The notes under the pieces are model-generated. The model had not been told where the DNA came from and searched no databases. It worked only from the letters and a program-made list of their open reading frames with translations. A DNA stretch of 64,000 bases from a virus (Duplodnaviria; Caudoviricetes): IMG/VR virus record IMGVR_UViG_3300047382_000771, positions 32,001 to 96,000 of that record; one strand, written 5' to 3'. How positions within the stretch are numbered: the stretch's first letter is position 1; each line of letters opens with the position of its first letter. The translations under genes and the position numbers were made by a program. Below are positions 30,144-38,094 of this stretch, in pieces.

Positions 30144-32558
30144 TTATGATACTTTAAATTTTATTTCAGAATTCGATAGGTAGAAATCAAAATTTATAGA
30201 TGTATTTACATTTTTATTTAAAACATAAGAAGATAGTGGAGACTCTATGTTTTTCTTAATTATTCTATCTAAAGGCCTAGCTCCCATGTTTTCTTTTCTT
30301 GCTAATTCACATATATATTGTACGGAATCTTCATCTAAAGATAGGGAGATATCTCTTTTTTTCAGTTTCTTTTTTAGAGAAGAGATTTTGCCATTTAATA
30401 TTTTAATAAAAGATTCTTGTGGTAAGTTCTCGAATAAAATAATCTCATCAAGCCTATTGCAAAGTTCTGGGCTTAATAATTTTATAGCTTCTTCTCTGAC
30501 TTCTTCTTCTTTTGTATTATTTGACTGGCTAAACCCGAGACTGGTTTTGGTTAAAAGGTGAGCCCCTATGTTACTAGTTAATATAATAACACAATCTTTA
30601 AAATACGCTTTGCCGCCAAACTGATCTTCTATCTCACCTTCCTCTAAGATTTGTAATAATAATTGCTGGACATCTCTATGAGCTTTCTCTATTTCATCAA
30701 AAATTAAAACACAGTGTGGGGTTTTTTTAACTTTTTCTATTAAGAATCCCCCCTCTTCATAACCCACATAGCCAGGAGAAGAGCCTATAAGCTTTGATGA
30801 GGATATTTTTTCAGAGTACTCAGACATATCTAGTCTGATGACTTTTTTAGAATCTCCAAAAAACTTTTCAGCTAAAACTTTGCCAGTATAGGTTTTGCCA
30901 GTACCTGTTAGACCTAGAAATAAAAATGAAGATATTGGTTTGTGGTTATCCTTAATGCCTAATTTTGACCTACCTATGCTATCCACTATGGAGTCAATAG
31001 CAGATGGTTGACCTATAACTTGAGATTTTAGGGAACGTTTTAAATTATTTAAATTAAACGAAGATGATTTATTGATATGCTCTACTGGCACCTTTGTTTT
31101 TTTAGCGACTATAGACTCAATCAGGTCTATTGATATGGTTCTATCTATAGATTTTTCCCATTTGTTGTATTCATCTTCGTATCTATCCAGTAAGCTTTCC
31201 TCTAGTTTAGCATTAATTTCAGGCTCATAACTTAAGTCGTAGAGCTGGGATTCTATTTGAGATAAAGAGGAAGGTTCGGTTAGATTAAATATTTTTAAAC
31301 AAGAGCCAGCCTCATCCATTAAATCGATGGCTTTATCAGGGAAATATTTAGTTGGCAAAAACTCTTCAGCCAAATCCACAATTTTCTTCAAGCATGTTTT
31401 GGAGTATTTTACATCATGGAATTCTTCGTATGATTTTTTAATTCCATTAAGTATTTCTAGGCACTCGCTTTTGTTGGGCTCATCAACAAACACAGGTTCA
31501 AGCCTTCTGTTCAAAGCCATATCTTTTTCTATGCTTTTTTTATACTCTGGATATGTAGTGGCGGTAATTAGTTTGATTTGACCCCTAGCGAGAGCTGGCT
31601 TTAATATATTAGCAGCATCCAATGCCCCCTCCGCACTCCCCGCACCAATCAAGGTATGAGCCTCGTCAATAAATAAAATAATATTAGAATCAGAAACCTC
31701 TGAAATTAAGTTTTTTAATCTTTGCTCGAATTGACCTCTATATTTAGTGCCAGCAACCATTGATGCTATATCGACAGCATAAACTTCAAAATTTTGCAAG
31801 AAAGATGGGCAGCGTTTAGCCACAATTAGATTAGCTAGACCTTCCACACATGCAGTTTTACCTACGCCAGGGTCACCAATTAAAATGGGATTGTTTTTAT
31901 TTTTTCTACCCAAGATTTCGAAAATTCTATTAACTTCAGAGTCACGACCTATGACTTTATCAATCTTGCCCCTCGATGACATTTCATTTAAATTAACACA
32001 GAAATTTTCTAAACTACTACCTTCAGTATTGCTGGGAATTTCGGTCGGAGTTTTGGGGAAACTGCCTGGGTTGCCTTGGTTGCCAGGAATATCAAATGTA
32101 AGATTTTTAAATTTTAATAAATTCAAAAAGTCTAACATAACCTTGTTTGGTTCTTTATCTATGGAAGTTAGGAACATGCAACCTGCTCCTCCTTTCCTAT
32201 TTAACAAAGCAAAGAAAAGGTGTTCTGCACCTATGTAATGGTCTTGACACTTCTCAGAGAGCTTATGGGCTTCGTTTAAAGCAGTTTTGAAATCATCATT
32301 ATACTGAACATCTTTAAGGCTAAGGTCTGATTCCCCTTTCTTGTTCAGGGAACCAAAGGTTGTTACAAAAGATACGAATTCATTTTTAGATATTTTTTGT
32401 TTACGCAGAAACAGATCTATGAAATCATCTTCAGATTCTAACAAAAGAATCAACAAATGCTCTTCTCTTACGGACAGATGGCCAAGAGAAAATGCAAGCT
32501 CTTTAGATTTAGTTATGAAATACTGGGACTTCGGTGAAAAGTTTGGGCCTTGTGACAT
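30144..32558 (-). CDS. ClpA/ClpC-family AAA+ unfoldase
   Basis: Clp N-domain (EEHLLILLL, GAEHLFFALL); NBD1 GDPGVGKT / FIDEAH; NBD2 GLTGTGKT / FDEIEKAH; LGF loop; no long ClpB middle domain. Confidence 0.92.
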   Translation of the reverse strand: MSQGPNFSPKSQYFITKSKELAFSLGHLSVREEHLLILLLESEDDFIDLFLRKQKISKNEFVSFVTTFGSLNKKGESDLSLKDVQYNDDFKTALNEAHKLSEKCQDHYIGAEHLFFALLNRKGGAGCMFLTSIDKEPNKVMLDFLNLLKFKNLTFDIPGNQGNPGSFPKTPTEIPSNTEGSSLENFCVNLNEMSSRGKIDKVIGRDSEVNRIFEILGRKNKNNPILIGDPGVGKTACVEGLANLIVAKRCPSFLQNFEVYAVDIASMVAGTKYRGQFEQRLKNLISEVSDSNIILFIDEAHTLIGAGSAEGALDAANILKPALARGQIKLITATTYPEYKKSIEKDMALNRRLEPVFVDEPNKSECLEILNGIKKSYEEFHDVKYSKTCLKKIVDLAEEFLPTKYFPDKAIDLMDEAGSCLKIFNLTEPSSLSQIESQLYDLSYEPEINAKLEESLLDRYEDEYNKWEKSIDRTISIDLIESIVAKKTKVPVEHINKSSSFNLNNLKRSLKSQVIGQPSAIDSIVDSIGRSKLGIKDNHKPISSFLFLGLTGTGKTYTGKVLAEKFFGDSKKVIRLDMSEYSEKISSSKLIGSSPGYVGYEEGGFLIEKVKKTPHCVLIFDEIEKAHRDVQQLLLQILEEGEIEDQFGGKAYFKDCVIILTSNIGAHLLTKTSLGFSQSNNTKEEEVREEAIKLLSPELCNRLDEIILFENLPQESFIKILNGKISSLKKKLKKRDISLSLDEDSVQYICELARKENMGARPLDRIIKKNIESPLSSYVLNKNVNTSINFDFYLSNSEIKFKVS

Positions 32559-32569
32559 ATATAATATTA

Positions 32570-35146
32570 TTACACAGAATCGTTCTTAAAGTCGGAAAGT
32601 TTCATGTAGATCATTTCGTCAATGATCCTTATTCGATTTAAAAATAATGCATCTCCAGACCTATTTTTTTCCCCATAAACAACAACTATGTTCCCTTCTG
32701 AGGGGACCTTATTATCCTTTAAATATTCTGTGCATTTTTTGAACCTAGCTGTATCTACTAATATACCATCGACATTCCCGACCTCATCTTCGAGTTCGAG
32801 TTTGATGTAAAGATTACCATTTCTGGATTTTTCTTTTTTTGCAAATTTAACGACCAGTAAATATTTAGCAACAGTACCAGCTTCGCACTCTTTAAAAAAC
32901 TTAGAGTCCTTTAACTCCGAGTGTGAACTAGAAAATACATCTTTTAATCTAGTCGAGTAACTGAACCCAAGTAAGCTGCGTTCGAAGTACCAATTGGCGA
33001 ATTTCTGGTTCTTACTGTTTTTGTAGTATATTTCTTTTTGTGGCAAGTATTTTTTCTTAATAGTTTCATATCTAGATTCTTTAATTAATGGCTTGCCATC
33101 GTCCCCTGAGTATTTAAAACCAGAAGTTTTTGCTGAATTAAATATTTCGAACACGTCTTTATCTTCTTTTTCATGTATTGATATGAAGTTTCTTTTCTCT
33201 CTGTCAGTAAGAATATTAAATAATTGAGCCTCTAGTACTTGTTTGGCCCTATCTTCGTTTTGAGAGTCACTAAGAGCGCCTGCCTGTATTAAGGATGACA
33301 ATGTGCCTATATTGAGACCAGAATGCTTAGCTGCTATGAATACTTCGAATTTATTAACAAACTTTTCTTCCTTGAACAACTGTATGGCATGTAAAGTTTT
33401 ATCGCTTATGCCCTTTATGCTAGACAAACCATATCTTATGTTTCCATCTTCAACACAATAATCAAAATCAGATTTAACTAAATTTGGTGGTAATAGTTTT
33501 ATGTCAAAATTTGGTAGCTCTTTGCTGATATTAGAGACTTCAAGCTGCGGATTTGGCTCAAAGTTTGTCATTTTTAATAACGCAAGAAAGAACTCTTGTG
33601 GATGATTAAATTTTAAATAAACAGTCCATGCCGCTAATGTAGCGTAACTGATAGAGTGGCTTTTATTAAATGAATAATTAGCACTATCTTCAGCCACCTT
33701 CCATAAAATATCACCAATAGTCTCTTCGAGATTTTGTTCTTCTATCTTATCTTCAATCTTGCTTTTCCACTCTGGCATTTTGTCTACCTTTTTCTTGCCT
33801 ACAATTCTTCTTAATTGTTCTGACTCGTCAAGGGTGAACCCTAATCTCACCGCCATCTTCATTAACTGCTCTTGGTATAATGGTATACCACCAGTATACG
33901 AGAGCTCTTCTTCAAAGAAATCATGAACTACCTGAGCCTCTCCAGACCTAATATAGTCAGAGTACTTATCAACAAAATCTAATGCCCCTGGCCTGGCTAA
34001 AGCTATAACAGCACTAAGCTCTTCAAGGCTTCTGGGTTTCACTTTTCTGCAAACAGAAAAATTAGTATGAGCCTCTATCTGAAATAAACCATGCGGAGAA
34101 TCTAGTTCAGAGAAAGGGTAATAGGTCTTGTCTTCATCTAGAGGTATCTTTGTTGGGTCAATACCTATTGAGTTGCAGGTGTTGTAAATTACACTTAACG
34201 TACGCAACCCAAGAATATCAAACTTAACCATAAGTTCTGACACCCAATTCATATCATAACCAGTGACAAGAGAGCCGTCATTAGTTTTTTGAACGGGACA
34301 TATGTCTTCGATTGCATTACAGGAAATAGCTATGCCAGACGGATGAACTCCTGAGTTTTTGTTTAAACCCTCAAGCTTCCTTGAAATGTCTACCACCCTC
34401 GTGTTATCTTCGGACCACTCCTTGAATTTAGTACTCTCCTCTAAGGATTTATCTATAGATGCTACCTTCCCAAAATTCTTGGGTATAAATGATGTAACAT
34501 GATTTATGTCTTGCTCTATATAATTACCTACTATTTTTCCACACTCCCTAATGCAGAGTTTGCTGCTCAAAGTATTCAATGTGAGAATTTTAGCAGTTCT
34601 ATTTGGGTAGCGATTTTCTATGTAAGAAACAACCCTGTCCCTATGTTCATAAGAAATATCATTATCAATATCAGCTAGTAAGCTTCCATCAAGATATGTT
34701 ACTCCATCTTTCTTGATCTTTTTTGCTCGACTCTCACTCACGAACCTCTCAAAAAATAAGTCATACTTAATAGGGTCAATCTTTGTGACACCAATAAAGA
34801 ATAAAACTAAAGAACCAGCGGCAGAACCACGACCTGGCCCAGTAGGTATATCATTTTCATGACAAAAATTTAATATGTCCCAATTCAGCAATATATAATC
34901 TATAAACCCTAATCTTTTTAAAATTGATAGCTCGCTAGATAGTCTGCCCTTGTACCCAAGTTTATCTTTTGATAAATCAATCCCTTTTAGTTTAGCTCCC
35001 GATTCACAGATCCTTTTTAGAAACATGAAATTAGATGCCCCGTCCTCCAAACCAACAGACTCGTACTGTTCTTTAGAGATGTTGATAGTGGGAAGGAGCA
35101 CTCCCGCAGGGATGCATTCTTCATAACTTGTGTAGGAATCAAACAT
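32570..35146 (-). CDS. dnaE: DNA polymerase III alpha-like catalytic core, lacking the PHP domain
   Basis: GPGRGSAAGSLV, FERF, DIDND, HPSG, KFDILGL, LYQEQLM, YSFNKSH and a C-terminal OB fold. Confidence 0.95.
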   Translation of the reverse strand: MFDSYTSYEECIPAGVLLPTINISKEQYESVGLEDGASNFMFLKRICESGAKLKGIDLSKDKLGYKGRLSSELSILKRLGFIDYILLNWDILNFCHENDIPTGPGRGSAAGSLVLFFIGVTKIDPIKYDLFFERFVSESRAKKIKKDGVTYLDGSLLADIDNDISYEHRDRVVSYIENRYPNRTAKILTLNTLSSKLCIRECGKIVGNYIEQDINHVTSFIPKNFGKVASIDKSLEESTKFKEWSEDNTRVVDISRKLEGLNKNSGVHPSGIAISCNAIEDICPVQKTNDGSLVTGYDMNWVSELMVKFDILGLRTLSVIYNTCNSIGIDPTKIPLDEDKTYYPFSELDSPHGLFQIEAHTNFSVCRKVKPRSLEELSAVIALARPGALDFVDKYSDYIRSGEAQVVHDFFEEELSYTGGIPLYQEQLMKMAVRLGFTLDESEQLRRIVGKKKVDKMPEWKSKIEDKIEEQNLEETIGDILWKVAEDSANYSFNKSHSISYATLAAWTVYLKFNHPQEFFLALLKMTNFEPNPQLEVSNISKELPNFDIKLLPPNLVKSDFDYCVEDGNIRYGLSSIKGISDKTLHAIQLFKEEKFVNKFEVFIAAKHSGLNIGTLSSLIQAGALSDSQNEDRAKQVLEAQLFNILTDREKRNFISIHEKEDKDVFEIFNSAKTSGFKYSGDDGKPLIKESRYETIKKKYLPQKEIYYKNSKNQKFANWYFERSLLGFSYSTRLKDVFSSSHSELKDSKFFKECEAGTVAKYLLVVKFAKKEKSRNGNLYIKLELEDEVGNVDGILVDTARFKKCTEYLKDNKVPSEGNIVVVYGEKNRSGDALFLNRIRIIDEMIYMKLSDFKNDSV
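32571..32575 (-). promoter_or_regulatory. GTGTA motif, 12 nt upstream of the clp ATG
   Basis: ctGTGTAataatattatatATG. Confidence 0.7.
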
Positions 35147-35345
35147 TATTCTGTAAGGTGTTTTCTATTTCAAGTAAATCTGTATAAACTGCGTATACTT
35201 CATCTGGTCTCGTGCTCCAATATTCTGGAGGTTTTGATAAGAAAAATTTAATTAGATCAGCTAAGTGTTGGTTGGCTTTGTTCTTGAGTAATGTGTCTTT
35301 TAAGTATTGGTATGTAATAGTATTATTCATATTGAAATATTCCAA
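35139..35345 (-). CDS. Hypothetical protein (68 aa)
   Basis: ORF overlaps both neighbours within the operon. Confidence 0.5.
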   Translation of the reverse strand: MEYFNMNNTITYQYLKDTLLKNKANQHLADLIKFFLSKPPEYWSTRPDEVYAVYTDLLEIENTLQNNV

Positions 35346-35974
35346 ATCATTTTATTAAAAACTTCAAAATTTTTAGTTATATCGTAAAGCGCATCATGCA
35401 GTTTTGCAGGATCAAAACTTATATCGTACTTTTTGCAACAAGAGGCTAAGTTTAAACTCATACCCCTCTCTCTGAAAGAATTTAATTTGAATTGAAAAAC
35501 AGATAAATCTTCTTTTTTGTTGTATGGTATTTCTTTTTGTATAGCTTTGCCGATTGATAATGTATCAATAGATCTTTTAAGATAACTGTAGTCAGTCTTT
35601 CTGCCTAAGCACTGTCTGAATATGTTGTGTATATATATATCAAAACCAAATATATTGTGCCCCAAATTTATGTACTCTGGATTATACAAGTAGGTCTCAA
35701 AGTGATCTAAGATAAAAGAAGGATCTTCGCCTCTAGCATTATATACTTTTCTCGAAAAACCAGTAATCTTTTCTGCATCTTTGGATATTTTTAAGTCATC
35801 CCATTTTATATAATAATCGTGCTTGGAAATAATCTTTGTTCCCTCAGCAATAATAAATGCTAACTGCCAAGGCTTGTTATCTTCTGACGCTAAATTAAGA
35901 TTGCAGGTTTCGAAATCAAAGATAAGATATTTTTGATCTTTTTTAAACCTTAAAAGTTCGTTATCCATTATCAC
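35327..35974 (-). CDS. dnaQ: DEDDh 3'-5' exonuclease (DnaQ/epsilon-like)
   Basis: ExoI IFDFET, ExoII GHNIFGFD, ExoIII HDALYD. Confidence 0.88.
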   Translation of the reverse strand: MIMDNELLRFKKDQKYLIFDFETCNLNLASEDNKPWQLAFIIAEGTKIISKHDYYIKWDDLKISKDAEKITGFSRKVYNARGEDPSFILDHFETYLYNPEYINLGHNIFGFDIYIHNIFRQCLGRKTDYSYLKRSIDTLSIGKAIQKEIPYNKKEDLSVFQFKLNSFRERGMSLNLASCCKKYDISFDPAKLHDALYDITKNFEVFNKMIWNISI

Positions 35975-36167
35975 TTGAGAGGTTTTTTAAATTATTAATT
36001 AAAGCATGCTTTTCCTTGCTGGGTAAGGAGTTATACTGCCTCTTTAATGCTTTAAGCATTCTTTTGTGTTCTGGTATAGAGCTGTCATAATTTATGATAG
36101 ATTTTATTTTTTTAACAGTACTGGAATTCATAATTTTATATTTAGGATTGTTATAGGAGACTCTCAT
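35961..36167 (-). CDS. Hypothetical basic protein (68 aa)
   Basis: ORF overlaps both neighbours. Confidence 0.45.
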   Translation of the reverse strand: MRVSYNNPKYKIMNSSTVKKIKSIINYDSSIPEHKRMLKALKRQYNSLPSKEKHALINNLKNLSSDNG

Positions 36168-36900
36168 AGCAAAATTCTTTACTACCCATGTGGTCTAAGT
36201 TGGGTTTTTCTAGAGAACTTTTTCTAGACGCGAAAGAGCTTCTAGAACATATGAGTTTATATGTTAAGAATGCTTCAAAATCTTTACGATTTTTATAAAA
36301 AACAGATTTAGTTTTATGGGTCGGGTAAGAATGATTCAATGTATAGTTTTTGATATTGTTTTCTAACATAAAATCAAAGGGTAAACCATTGTCTTCCAAA
36401 AAGAAATGAGGGTTAAAACTAGATAAATCCACGACAAATGAATTAAATAAAAATAAATTACAAAACAAAAAAGAATCATAAAATGGAACAGCTAAATCTA
36501 GATGGTCTGAATTCCAATATGAAGCCAAATCCGTTAAGGTGATAGCATTTATATCACTCGACTTTACTTTACTATAAATTTTAAATAAACACTTGCACCC
36601 TTCGGAATTCTTACTAAATACAATTAACTTATGTTTCGGAGTTTTTTTGTCTTCTGGGTCAAAAGATTCGTCTACTATATCTATTCTTAAACCGAATCTA
36701 AAATTAACATCCATAGCCTTAGCTACTTTGTTCGCTTGAAGGAAACCCATAAAGCTATCTTCAACCATTACTACTTCTGTAAGATTGTTTTCTTTAACTA
36801 TATCAAATACAGAATCTGATGAGCCATTCGACTCGGAAGGCTCGTTTAATGTTAAGATAGATTTACCAATAGAATAGTGGCTTTTGAATAGCGGTATCAT
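36151..36900 (-). CDS. Stand-alone PHP domain of DNA polymerase III alpha, metal ligands degenerate
   Basis: SHYSIGKS resembles HSEYSLLDG; MVEDS resembles ITDH; FRFGLR resembles IIGxE; HKLIVFSKNSEG resembles HLxLLAKNxxG. 249 + 858 aa is about a full-length DnaE. Confidence 0.8.
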   Translation of the reverse strand: MIPLFKSHYSIGKSILTLNEPSESNGSSDSVFDIVKENNLTEVVMVEDSFMGFLQANKVAKAMDVNFRFGLRIDIVDESFDPEDKKTPKHKLIVFSKNSEGCKCLFKIYSKVKSSDINAITLTDLASYWNSDHLDLAVPFYDSFLFCNLFLFNSFVVDLSSFNPHFFLEDNGLPFDFMLENNIKNYTLNHSYPTHKTKSVFYKNRKDFEAFLTYKLICSRSSFASRKSSLEKPNLDHMGSKEFCYESLL

Positions 36901-36908
36901 CGCTAAAC

Positions 36909-36937
36909 ATCATAGCAATAAACAGGTTCGAAGTCAA
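36909..36937 (-). promoter_or_regulatory. sigma70-type promoter with extended -10, near-leaderless
   Basis: TTGACT (36937-36932), 17 nt ending TGc, TATGAT (36914-36909), 8 nt, ATG. Confidence 0.75.
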
Positions 36938-36939
36938 GG

Positions 36940-38094
36940 CTATTTTTTAGCTCTCTCAATGAAGTGGTCGGCTAAACCACCTTCGTCTATGTACTCCTGC
37001 AACTCTTCTAATAATTTATTCCTAATAGCTTTTACATCTGGTGGTAGCTCTTCCTTCTTGTGGGCTGCGAAAGTCATCGTAGCTGCTATCAGGAGTAGGA
37101 TAGCTAGAGGGTCAAATACGAATATAAGAGTTATTATAACTACACGGATGGCTTGATTAGTGTCAATAGACATACCTGCCCATTCGTTTAGCATGTTAGC
37201 TATATATAGGATTGGACCTATCTCCACTTCTAGGGCCCTTAATTTGGATCCATACTCAAATTTTTCTGACTCCATGACATCTATTCTGTCGTAAGCTTCT
37301 TCTATGACAGTTCTTGGGACACTTGTTTCTTTTGGAGCAATGGAGGTGCCTATTAAAATATTATCAATTTTATCTCTTGAGTCTTTTATTTTATCATCAA
37401 AACTTGAAGAAATAGATTGAATTTCTTCCTCAATAGATAAACGCTGTGAAGCTAAGCTTTCTTTTTCTTTTTTTTGAGCATCGACTAGTTGGTCATATTT
37501 TTTTTGACTCCCAAAAAGACCGCTTGGTTTTGCGTTTTTTAATTCTAGATCTAACTCCAAGAGCCTTCCTGATATATTTGTTATAATTTTCTCTTGTACA
37601 GATATAGAGGAAGACTTTTCTTCTTTTAATAATTTAACCCTAGACTCTAATACTGCAACAGTATCGCTCGAATTTTCTTGAGCGGACTGCATGGATTCAT
37701 TTAAGGATTTAAATTCTAACTCTTTTCTTTCTATAAATTTTAATTCCCTATTGATTTTATCATCTATCTGTTGAATGATTGCTTGTTCTTTTTCTATAGA
37801 TGCGTGGTGCTCCACGTGCGATCTTGAAAGGAAGCCAAAAATACCCATACTTGTTATCAAACTTAAAACAACAACAGAAAATAAAAGATAACGTTTAAGA
37901 AACTTAAATGCATTATTCCAATTATGGTGCAACCATACGGACGCAATAAGTTTTCCAATCTCCAGTACCCCGCCCATAATTATGATAGCTTCCCTTGAGC
38001 CTGGGAACATGGTAGCTAGACCTATGACACTAAAATAAGCTGCCGTCAAAGAAATAGATACGGCAGAAACAAAAACTAGTCCTGCAAAAAACAT
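36940..38094 (-). CDS. Membrane protein with N-terminal TM helices, a long coiled coil and a C-terminal TM segment
   Basis: Hydrophobic AAYFSVIGL, GGVLEIGKL and ITSMGIFGFLS segments; EVEIGPILYIA...FDPLAILLLIAA; resembles a family I recall from large aquatic phages. Confidence 0.7.
   Translation of the reverse strand: MFFAGLVFVSAVSISLTAAYFSVIGLATMFPGSREAIIIMGGVLEIGKLIASVWLHHNWNNAFKFLKRYLLFSVVVLSLITSMGIFGFLSRSHVEHHASIEKEQAIIQQIDDKINRELKFIERKELEFKSLNESMQSAQENSSDTVAVLESRVKLLKEEKSSSISVQEKIITNISGRLLELDLELKNAKPSGLFGSQKKYDQLVDAQKKEKESLASQRLSIEEEIQSISSSFDDKIKDSRDKIDNILIGTSIAPKETSVPRTVIEEAYDRIDVMESEKFEYGSKLRALEVEIGPILYIANMLNEWAGMSIDTNQAIRVVIITLIFVFDPLAILLLIAATMTFAAHKKEELPPDVKAIRNKLLEELQEYIDEGGLADHFIERAKK

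Follow-up and report, generated by a model that had tools for sequence, protein, structure and literature searches.

The core of E. coli DNA polymerase III (Pol III) is built from alpha (DnaE), epsilon (DnaQ) and theta (HolE). The PHP domain of its alpha subunit is inactive; it stabilises alpha and docks epsilon. The exonuclease of PolC, as structures such as 3F2B show, forms an insertion within the PHP barrel. Here we deal with a locus of an uncultured marine phage, in which the corresponding modules are encoded apart. The window, a stretch of 64,000 nucleotides (nt), comprises bases 32001-96000 of the 200,094-bp IMG/VR virus record IMGVR_UViG_3300047382_000771, which is rated complete by CheckV. 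On the minus strand, this genome of about 200 kb carries separate genes for what fold and profiles identify as a polymerase-type PHP protein (PHP), for a DEDDh exonuclease (EXO) and for a DnaE-type polymerase core (CORE), together with two small open reading frames (ORFs), s1 and s2. The split into PHP, EXO and CORE is real, conserved and widespread. We consider it probable, at roughly 0.8, that the only replicative polymerase of this phage is a non-covalent assembly of the three separately translated proteins, which would be modules of one ancestral enzyme.

The locus shares with the E. coli Pol III core a DnaE-type polymerase, a separately encoded DEDDh proofreader and a PHP without metal binding, for which a structural or docking role is likewise proposed; structures of E. 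coli alpha are among the top fold matches of the phage PHP. The differences lie in the arrangement. The phage PHP is a polypeptide of its own, and the phage alpha starts at the palm. Epsilon has a long C-terminal tail that binds PHP, whereas the phage exonuclease has an N-terminal LLRF peptide instead. A theta homologue is not found in the phage by sequence, and the phage genes follow each other contiguously as PHP-EXO-CORE.

With PolC of Firmicutes, the phage has in common the collinear order of PHP, DEDDh exonuclease and polymerase, and the best curated match of EXO is the PolC exonuclease region. An earlier reading of the window from its letters, the sequence-only reading, had seen in the gene order an echo of the PolC layout. 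The echo fades on comparison: a complete seven-strand PHP precedes the exonuclease in the split and also in the fused forms, the core is of the DnaE and not of the PolC type, and there are three polypeptides.

An N-terminal PHP on the same chain has been described as universal in C-family polymerases (PMC12926913). Split polymerases as such are not new. In the Aeromonas phages 25 and 44RR, a family-B polymerase is split into gp43A and gp43B, which co-purify and are active (Petrov, Ratnayaka and Karam 2010, in PMC2988022). This, too, is an intein-free phage replicase in separate adjacent genes, and the gp43 products reassemble. However, gp43 belongs to family B, comes in two pieces, and its split is tied to a homing endonuclease or an untranslated insert; in our phage, the gene between the pieces is that of the proofreader, and the junctions of relatives show no homing endonuclease. 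The "fractured" dnaE loci of marine metagenomes are phage-like, depend on split inteins and often contain a homing endonuclease gene; PHP is unmentioned there (PMC2677866). Like the split DnaE of cyanobacteria, they represent a dnaE in pieces, but both make use of split inteins, and the break lies elsewhere in the protein.

Group 2.2 jumbo phages have a minimal split Pol III alpha module (Iyer, Anantharaman, Krishnan, Burroughs and Aravind 2021, PMC7824862). Again, we see a Pol III alpha homologue that lacks PHP on the catalytic chain and is split into stand-alone proteins. That module, however, is cut inside the catalytic part, its genes are distant, PHP and the other alpha domains are absent, and it accompanies a family-B replicase. 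Our phage, in contrast, has a full DnaE core as the only polymerase detected, and PHP survives as a separate gene. Two cultured phages of the Bacillus group, finally, Rossellomorea phage phiT1 (L093) and Bacillus phage Jayan (L095), have a DnaE whose annotation shows two genes; the cut is within the polymerase body, in the palm, and an ORF of 49-76 amino acids (aa) separates the two. They resemble our phage in being intein-free split phage DnaEs with a small ORF between the pieces, yet PHP stays on the first half, whereas here the cut falls exactly at the PHP/palm linker. In the literature, we found no paper on a free polymerase PHP or on the PHP/EXO/CORE split, nor one that discusses the two-gene DnaE of phiT1 and Jayan.

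The three proteins

The PHP ORF is a polymerase-type PHP, as judged by its predicted fold, by profile-profile comparison and by PHROG. The AlphaFold2 model, built from 39 homologues, is a seven-strand barrel with a predicted local distance difference test (pLDDT) of 84.6 and a predicted template modelling (TM) score (pTM) of 0.84. Its top 20 Foldseek matches in the PDB are, without exception, PHP domains of Pol III alpha or PolC, the sources being E. coli, Taq, M. tuberculosis and PolC polymerases (TM 0.58-0.71). By hhalign, the protein matches canonical DnaE PHPs over residues 31-223 with a probability of 95.5%. The homology to the PHP of DnaE, on which the sequence-only reading had staked its case beforehand, holds in both comparisons. 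In PHROG, the PHP ORF matches positions 58-226 of phrog_405 (E=3.5e-8), a family of length 1190, and CORE matches positions 331-1080 of the same family. The two thus cover successive stretches of a single phage polymerase family, which supports the identity of the pieces. A tblastn search of PHP against cultured phages gave no match.

The canonical metal signature of PHP consists of nine residues, HHDHEH[C/H]DH (PMC12926913). At least seven of these nine ligands are missing from the PHP of the window, as judged by profile-profile alignment to canonical DnaE PHPs and 143 family representatives. In six of the aligned ligand columns, the residue is replaced or gone: the His of TDH is a gap or D48, the Glu of GxE is R72, the His of strand 4 is K91, the Cys of strand 5 is deleted, and the Asp and His of strand 7 are S199 and F201. 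Residues 1-18 contain a single His (H8) and no acidic residue. The loss of the HxH, D, TDH-His and GxE ligands had already been read from the letters. It stands, and it is family-wide; in the clade of the window, however, the histidine H8 of the HxH region is retained. The same substitutions are found across the 143 representatives, in fused and split forms alike, and PHP inactivation thus seems to predate the changes of architecture.

EXO belongs to the RNase_T family (Pfam, E=7.7e-11) and matches phrog_192. Among the NCBIfam models, the PolC exonuclease region comes first (3.9e-11), followed by DnaQ (1.5e-5); phmmer against PDB sequences found nothing. D20, E22, N107, D112, H193 and D198 are invariant in 24 sequences and make up the motifs Exo I, II and III. 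A C-terminal tail like that of epsilon is missing: EXO ends about 17 residues past D198 of Exo III, and no tail is seen in the alignment. At its other end, residues 5-12, there is a conserved N-terminal (D/E)xLLRF peptide. It occurs in 26/26 stand-alone exonucleases that coexist with a free PHP, sequences that are not phylogenetically independent, and is missing from two exonucleases beside a fused PHP-CORE and from five fused exonuclease domains. The peptide may serve in docking; we take it as a lead, not as a finding.

CORE has the Pfam domains PF07733 (E=4.7e-60), PF17657 (3.3e-32) and PF14579 (3.4e-14) and aligns to residues 387-954 of Taq alpha (E=8e-89) and to residues 313-893, or 318-888, of E. 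coli alpha. Its D159, D161 and D310 align to D401, D403 and D555 of the E. coli enzyme and are invariant in 19 cores. The NCBIfam models for DnaE reach E=1e-135, those for PolC 3e-10. The domain order is also DnaE-like, with fingers, HhH (beta-binding) and OB, the OB match being weak. Only about 40 residues precede the palm in CORE, and there is thus no PHP on the polypeptide; the PHP gene lies 1 kb upstream. Throughout the 200-kb genome, we found no family A or B polymerase and no second Pol III, PHP or RNase_T gene, EXO thus being the only RNase_T gene, and by these sequence searches CORE is the only DNA polymerase detected. Nor does the genome encode a beta clamp. Just past HhH, at residues 638-654, the cores display a nearly invariant LEAQxFNxLTDREKRNF, at about the place of the internal clamp-binding motif of E. 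coli alpha. It may be a contact to the clamp of the host.

Split and fused relatives

A search with CORE found 117 related viral contigs, and 80 IMG/VR loci with 55-98% core identity were fetched. A survey of synteny, the check proposed along with the sequence-only reading, bears it out: PHP, EXO and CORE are all present, in that order, in 77/80 loci. The order recurs in the distant lineages L090, L091, L098 and L099, and none of the 80 loci lacks the PHP gene where the contig extends to its position. PHP homologues, 136-436 aa in length, number 955 at the 90% cluster level; an exhaustive profile search yielded 550 representatives at the 50% level. The intein-free, three-piece C-family replicase of the sequence-only reading is supported by the polymerase-type PHP, by this synteny and by the relatives that have the same order on one chain.

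Some relatives show further variations. In L096 (7001-14759), PHP and EXO are followed by an AAA gene, three genes without family match and a thioredoxin/glutaredoxin-like gene; then comes the core in two genes of 602 aa and at least 392 aa, cut past the fingers, which makes four pieces in all. The PHPs of P0127, P0129, P0138, P0139, P0142, P0156 and P0160, as well as those of the loci L090 and L091, have an extra C-terminal domain of about 200 aa. It has no confident family; the sole hint is PDDEXK_14 at E=0.011 (P0160), together with D...E.K-like motifs recognised by eye. We considered it as a replacement exonuclease and rejected the idea, because EXO and CORE genes still follow. P0135 is a fusion of DUF4326 and PHP.

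Architectures were scored among the best 150 of the 550 PHP representatives. There, 136 are PHP only, nine are PHP-CORE, three PHP-EXO and two PHP-EXO-CORE (P0217 and P0153). P0217 (1509 aa, L082) stands directly after a PD-(D/E)XK gene, the same upstream neighbour as that of the module in the window. The PHP-CORE fusions have the exonuclease gene just upstream. The fused junctions coincide with the boundaries of the split genes, and the split point is the linker between the PHP tail F[CS]xES[YW] and the core start GVRLPEI; this linker would comprise some 20-30 residues.

The core tree, rooted with an outgroup, shows a monophyletic family (100*), in which fused PHP-CORE, the form of all outgroups, occupies the basal branches. 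The all-split clade of the window (99*) is sister to the triple fusions. The starred branches force at least four changes of architecture, and the hypothesis that the split cores form one clade fails the approximately unbiased (AU) test (delta lnL 205, p ~4e-58). Taken together, the rejection and the forced changes imply that fission and fusion occurred repeatedly, which in turn argues that the modules work together, linked or not.

Gene layout, junctions and neighbours

The coordinates are compiled in Table 1. The five minus-strand ORFs follow each other as PHP, s1, EXO, s2 and CORE, just as they had been listed in the sequence-only reading. That all of them overlap applies from s1 to CORE: as read from the sequence, the stop of s1 overlaps the ATG of EXO by 8 nt (ATGGATAA), the stop of EXO that of s2 by 4 nt (ATGA), and the stop of s2 that of CORE again by 8 nt (ATGTTTGA). 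It does not extend to the first pair. PHP and s1 probably do not overlap, because the homologues place the start of s1 at the internal ATG, 19 nt past the stop of PHP.

Table 1. Features of the polymerase locus and its surroundings (window positions, if not stated otherwise)
Feature	Position	Strand	Description
PHP ORF	36151-36900	minus	249 aa; stand-alone polymerase-type PHP by fold and profile, metal site lost; proposed structural/docking subunit
s1	35961-36167 (68 aa, first possible start); 35961-36131 (56 aa, conserved ATG)	minus	small ORF, putative cassette gene
EXO	35327-35974	minus	215 aa from GTG; likely true start ATG 35968; predicted DEDDh (DnaQ/PolC-exo type) 3'-5' proofreading exonuclease
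s2	35139-35345	minus	small ORF; 68 aa from TTG or 63 aa from ATG at 35330
CORE	32570-35146	minus	858 aa; PHP-less DnaE-type Pol III alpha: palm, thumb, fingers, HhH, weak OB
Promoter-like site, sigma-70 type	36909-36937	minus	TTGACT-17-TGcTATGAT; consensus match only
ClpB/ClpA-like gene	30144-32558	minus	double AAA+ protein, 804 aa; phrog_4871, E=3e-220
384-aa protein gene	36940-38094	minus	weak Tetraspanin and Perilipin matches only
Junction-insert loci examined in relatives	L015:4809-5345, L049:4854-5366, L007:3951-4958, L020:4389-5348		SET-domain or GMP-reductase/IMPDH-like

The 39-nt gap 5' of PHP holds a promoter-like site that ends 8 nt before the ATG of PHP and is the best minus-strand match of the region. 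A single sigma70 promoter had been claimed at this place. A site is indeed there, as a consensus match; as a class, however, promoter-like sites are not above chance in the region (28 found versus 34.5 expected). The candidate position would yield a nearly leaderless mRNA.

The two small ORFs had been thought of as theta-like or linker subunits. Neither role is supported. At the level of sequence, s1 and s2 have no Pfam, PHROG or NCBIfam match, even at permissive thresholds and with the theta family included; the nearest atlas clusters of s1 are viral hypothetical proteins, and neither s1 nor s2 has a named atlas neighbour. Their occurrence in the relatives is patchy. Homologues of s1, with conserved motifs, are found at the same junction in about 12/80 loci, and relatives of s2 are restricted to the nearest subclade (L002-L005, L007 and L014), where they have an S.P..YW motif in common. 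PHP adjoins EXO directly in 47/77 loci and EXO adjoins CORE directly in 64/77. By this distribution s1 and s2 appear as real genes, but as patchy cassette cargo rather than conserved subunits.

Other cargo is met at the same place. The PHP-EXO junction of relatives contains a SET-domain gene (~175 aa) or a GMP-reductase/IMPDH-like gene (~325 aa) and elsewhere unknown genes. These inserts suggest that the gene boundaries in the polymerase unit act as cassette insertion sites. We also considered whether the split might go back to inserts of homing endonucleases, as it does for T4-type genes in pieces; the kinds of genes found there led us to reject this.

Upstream of the polymerase unit, there are genes for a DnaB-like helicase, a primase and a PD-(D/E)XK nuclease. 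The 384-aa protein is encoded between the nuclease gene and PHP; its gene is present in only about 20/80 loci, mostly of closer relatives. The ClpB/ClpA-like gene, downstream of CORE, adjoins the 3' end of the latter in nearly all loci that reach past the core.

Proposed assembly of the pieces and its meaning

Most likely, the three proteins form one non-covalent replicase. We infer such an assembly because relatives fuse the modules and because the synteny is kept. In this enzyme, the PHP-less DnaE-type core would carry the polymerase active site, the DEDDh exonuclease would be active as proofreader, and the free PHP, deprived of its metal site, would, like that of E. coli alpha, have a structural or docking function. 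A single promoter just in front of PHP would drive the unit and co-transcribe the genes, while the start/stop overlaps would couple translation and help to keep the three proteins in proportion. PHP would have been inactive before the family diversified, and several switches between split and fused forms would have come later. Covalent linkage is presumably not required for function, since the family switched repeatedly between the two states. s1 and s2 would not belong to the enzyme but be accessory cassettes that had settled at the junctions between genes. As its genome encodes no sliding clamp, the phage probably relies on that of the host.

How PHP might hold such an enzyme together can be pictured only tentatively. 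Possibly, the dead PHP is an autonomous adaptor that bridges the tail-less exonuclease, via its N-terminal (D/E)xLLRF, to the PHP-less core; this would reverse the polarity of the contact between the epsilon C-tail and PHP in E. coli. Non-covalent interfaces could then let the family shuffle, fuse and re-split its modules and insert cargo genes without losing the replicase. A complex prediction with core residues 1-500 and PHP, in which the exonuclease was the scored partner, gave 0.63, as compared to 0.53 for a control with chain 1 replaced; by the rule of the tool, such a difference speaks neither for nor against binding.

Several points weigh against the three-protein replicase. Its assembly is deduced indirectly, from fusions and synteny. 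In L084, L096 and L097 PHP is not next to the core, and tight co-expression is therefore not universal; promoter and operon structure are consensus matches only. The architectures are labelled after metagenomic gene calls. The trees were made by a quick method, and the PHP-domain tree is poorly resolved, for which reason the core tree was used for the event counts. As to PHP itself, the Pfam PHP model leaves the window copy below threshold, and the PHP profile finds among PDB sequences a marginal PolC match only (E=0.086).

The most serious competitor, though a rather unlikely one, holds that PHP is a leftover or has a separate role, e.g., as adaptor for other proteins, and that the working replicase is made of core and exonuclease only. 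A catalytic site that is dead family-wide would fit, as would the loci just named, in which PHP is several genes away from or not adjacent to the core, and the fusions of PHP to unrelated domains (the ~200-aa unknown, DUF4326). Against this, the gene is there wherever the contig reaches it, 39 sequences have 33 invariant residues, among them PFYDSF and those of the C-terminal tail, and PHP has been re-fused to core or exonuclease in several lineages. Moreover, the inactive PHP of E. coli alpha still stabilises the polymerase and docks epsilon.

Far less probable is a split at the DNA level only, with the pieces rejoined into one polypeptide by split-intein trans-splicing, ribosomal bypass or frameshifting. 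Split inteins do rejoin the DnaE of cyanobacteria and that of the "fractured" environmental loci (Dassa et al. 2009, PMC2677866). Also within the present family, the cores of P0153 and P0247 contain inteins in their fingers region, one of these inteins with a LAGLIDADG domain; none is located at the PHP/EXO/CORE boundaries. Yet none of the five proteins of the window matches an intein family. The C-terminus of PHP and the N-terminus of CORE match the fused relatives residue for residue, leaving no extra length for intein halves; the absence of intein signatures at the split, noted from the letters before, is thereby upheld. Each gene has its own start codon, from s1 to CORE each overlaps the preceding stop, and in relatives up to 1.3 kb of unrelated genes separate the pieces.

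That the 249-aa ORF is an independent PHP-family phosphoesterase in a coincidental position can be considered as largely refuted. Free-standing PHP phosphoesterases exist, of course, and Pfam PHP is not significant on the window copy, but such esterases reach a TM of only about 0.35 against the PHP model, as compared to 0.58-0.71 for the polymerase PHPs; the metal ligands that an esterase needs are gone, and in full-length polymerases the same subfamily forms the N-terminal domain. With a metagenome assembly, one might also suspect an assembly error or a fused gene that has recently decayed into pseudogenes; this is refuted by the recurrence of the same boundaries in 77 independent contigs and hundreds of protein clusters, by the conservation of all catalytic residues of exonuclease and core, and by functional accessory genes inserted between the pieces in relatives.

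What makes the three-protein replicase worth the attention is the status of PHP. It has been treated as an integral and universal part of C-family polymerases (PMC12926913); here it is encoded apart. So far, the non-catalytic role of PHP in E. coli-type enzymes has been probed by mutagenesis of one large chain. The phage family offers a natural trans system, in which PHP, proofreader and polymerase are separate, and close relatives provide natural fusions in several combinations. The contribution of an inactive PHP, the recruitment of a tail-less proofreader and the importance of covalent linkage thus become testable. As an essential enzyme that was split and fused repeatedly and took up accessory genes at its breakpoints, the replicase also makes a clean case study of gene fission and fusion in viruses. 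Nor is the system rare: with hundreds of clusters at 50% identity on marine phage contigs of about 200 kb, a large share of the uncultured large phages of the sea may use such an enzyme.

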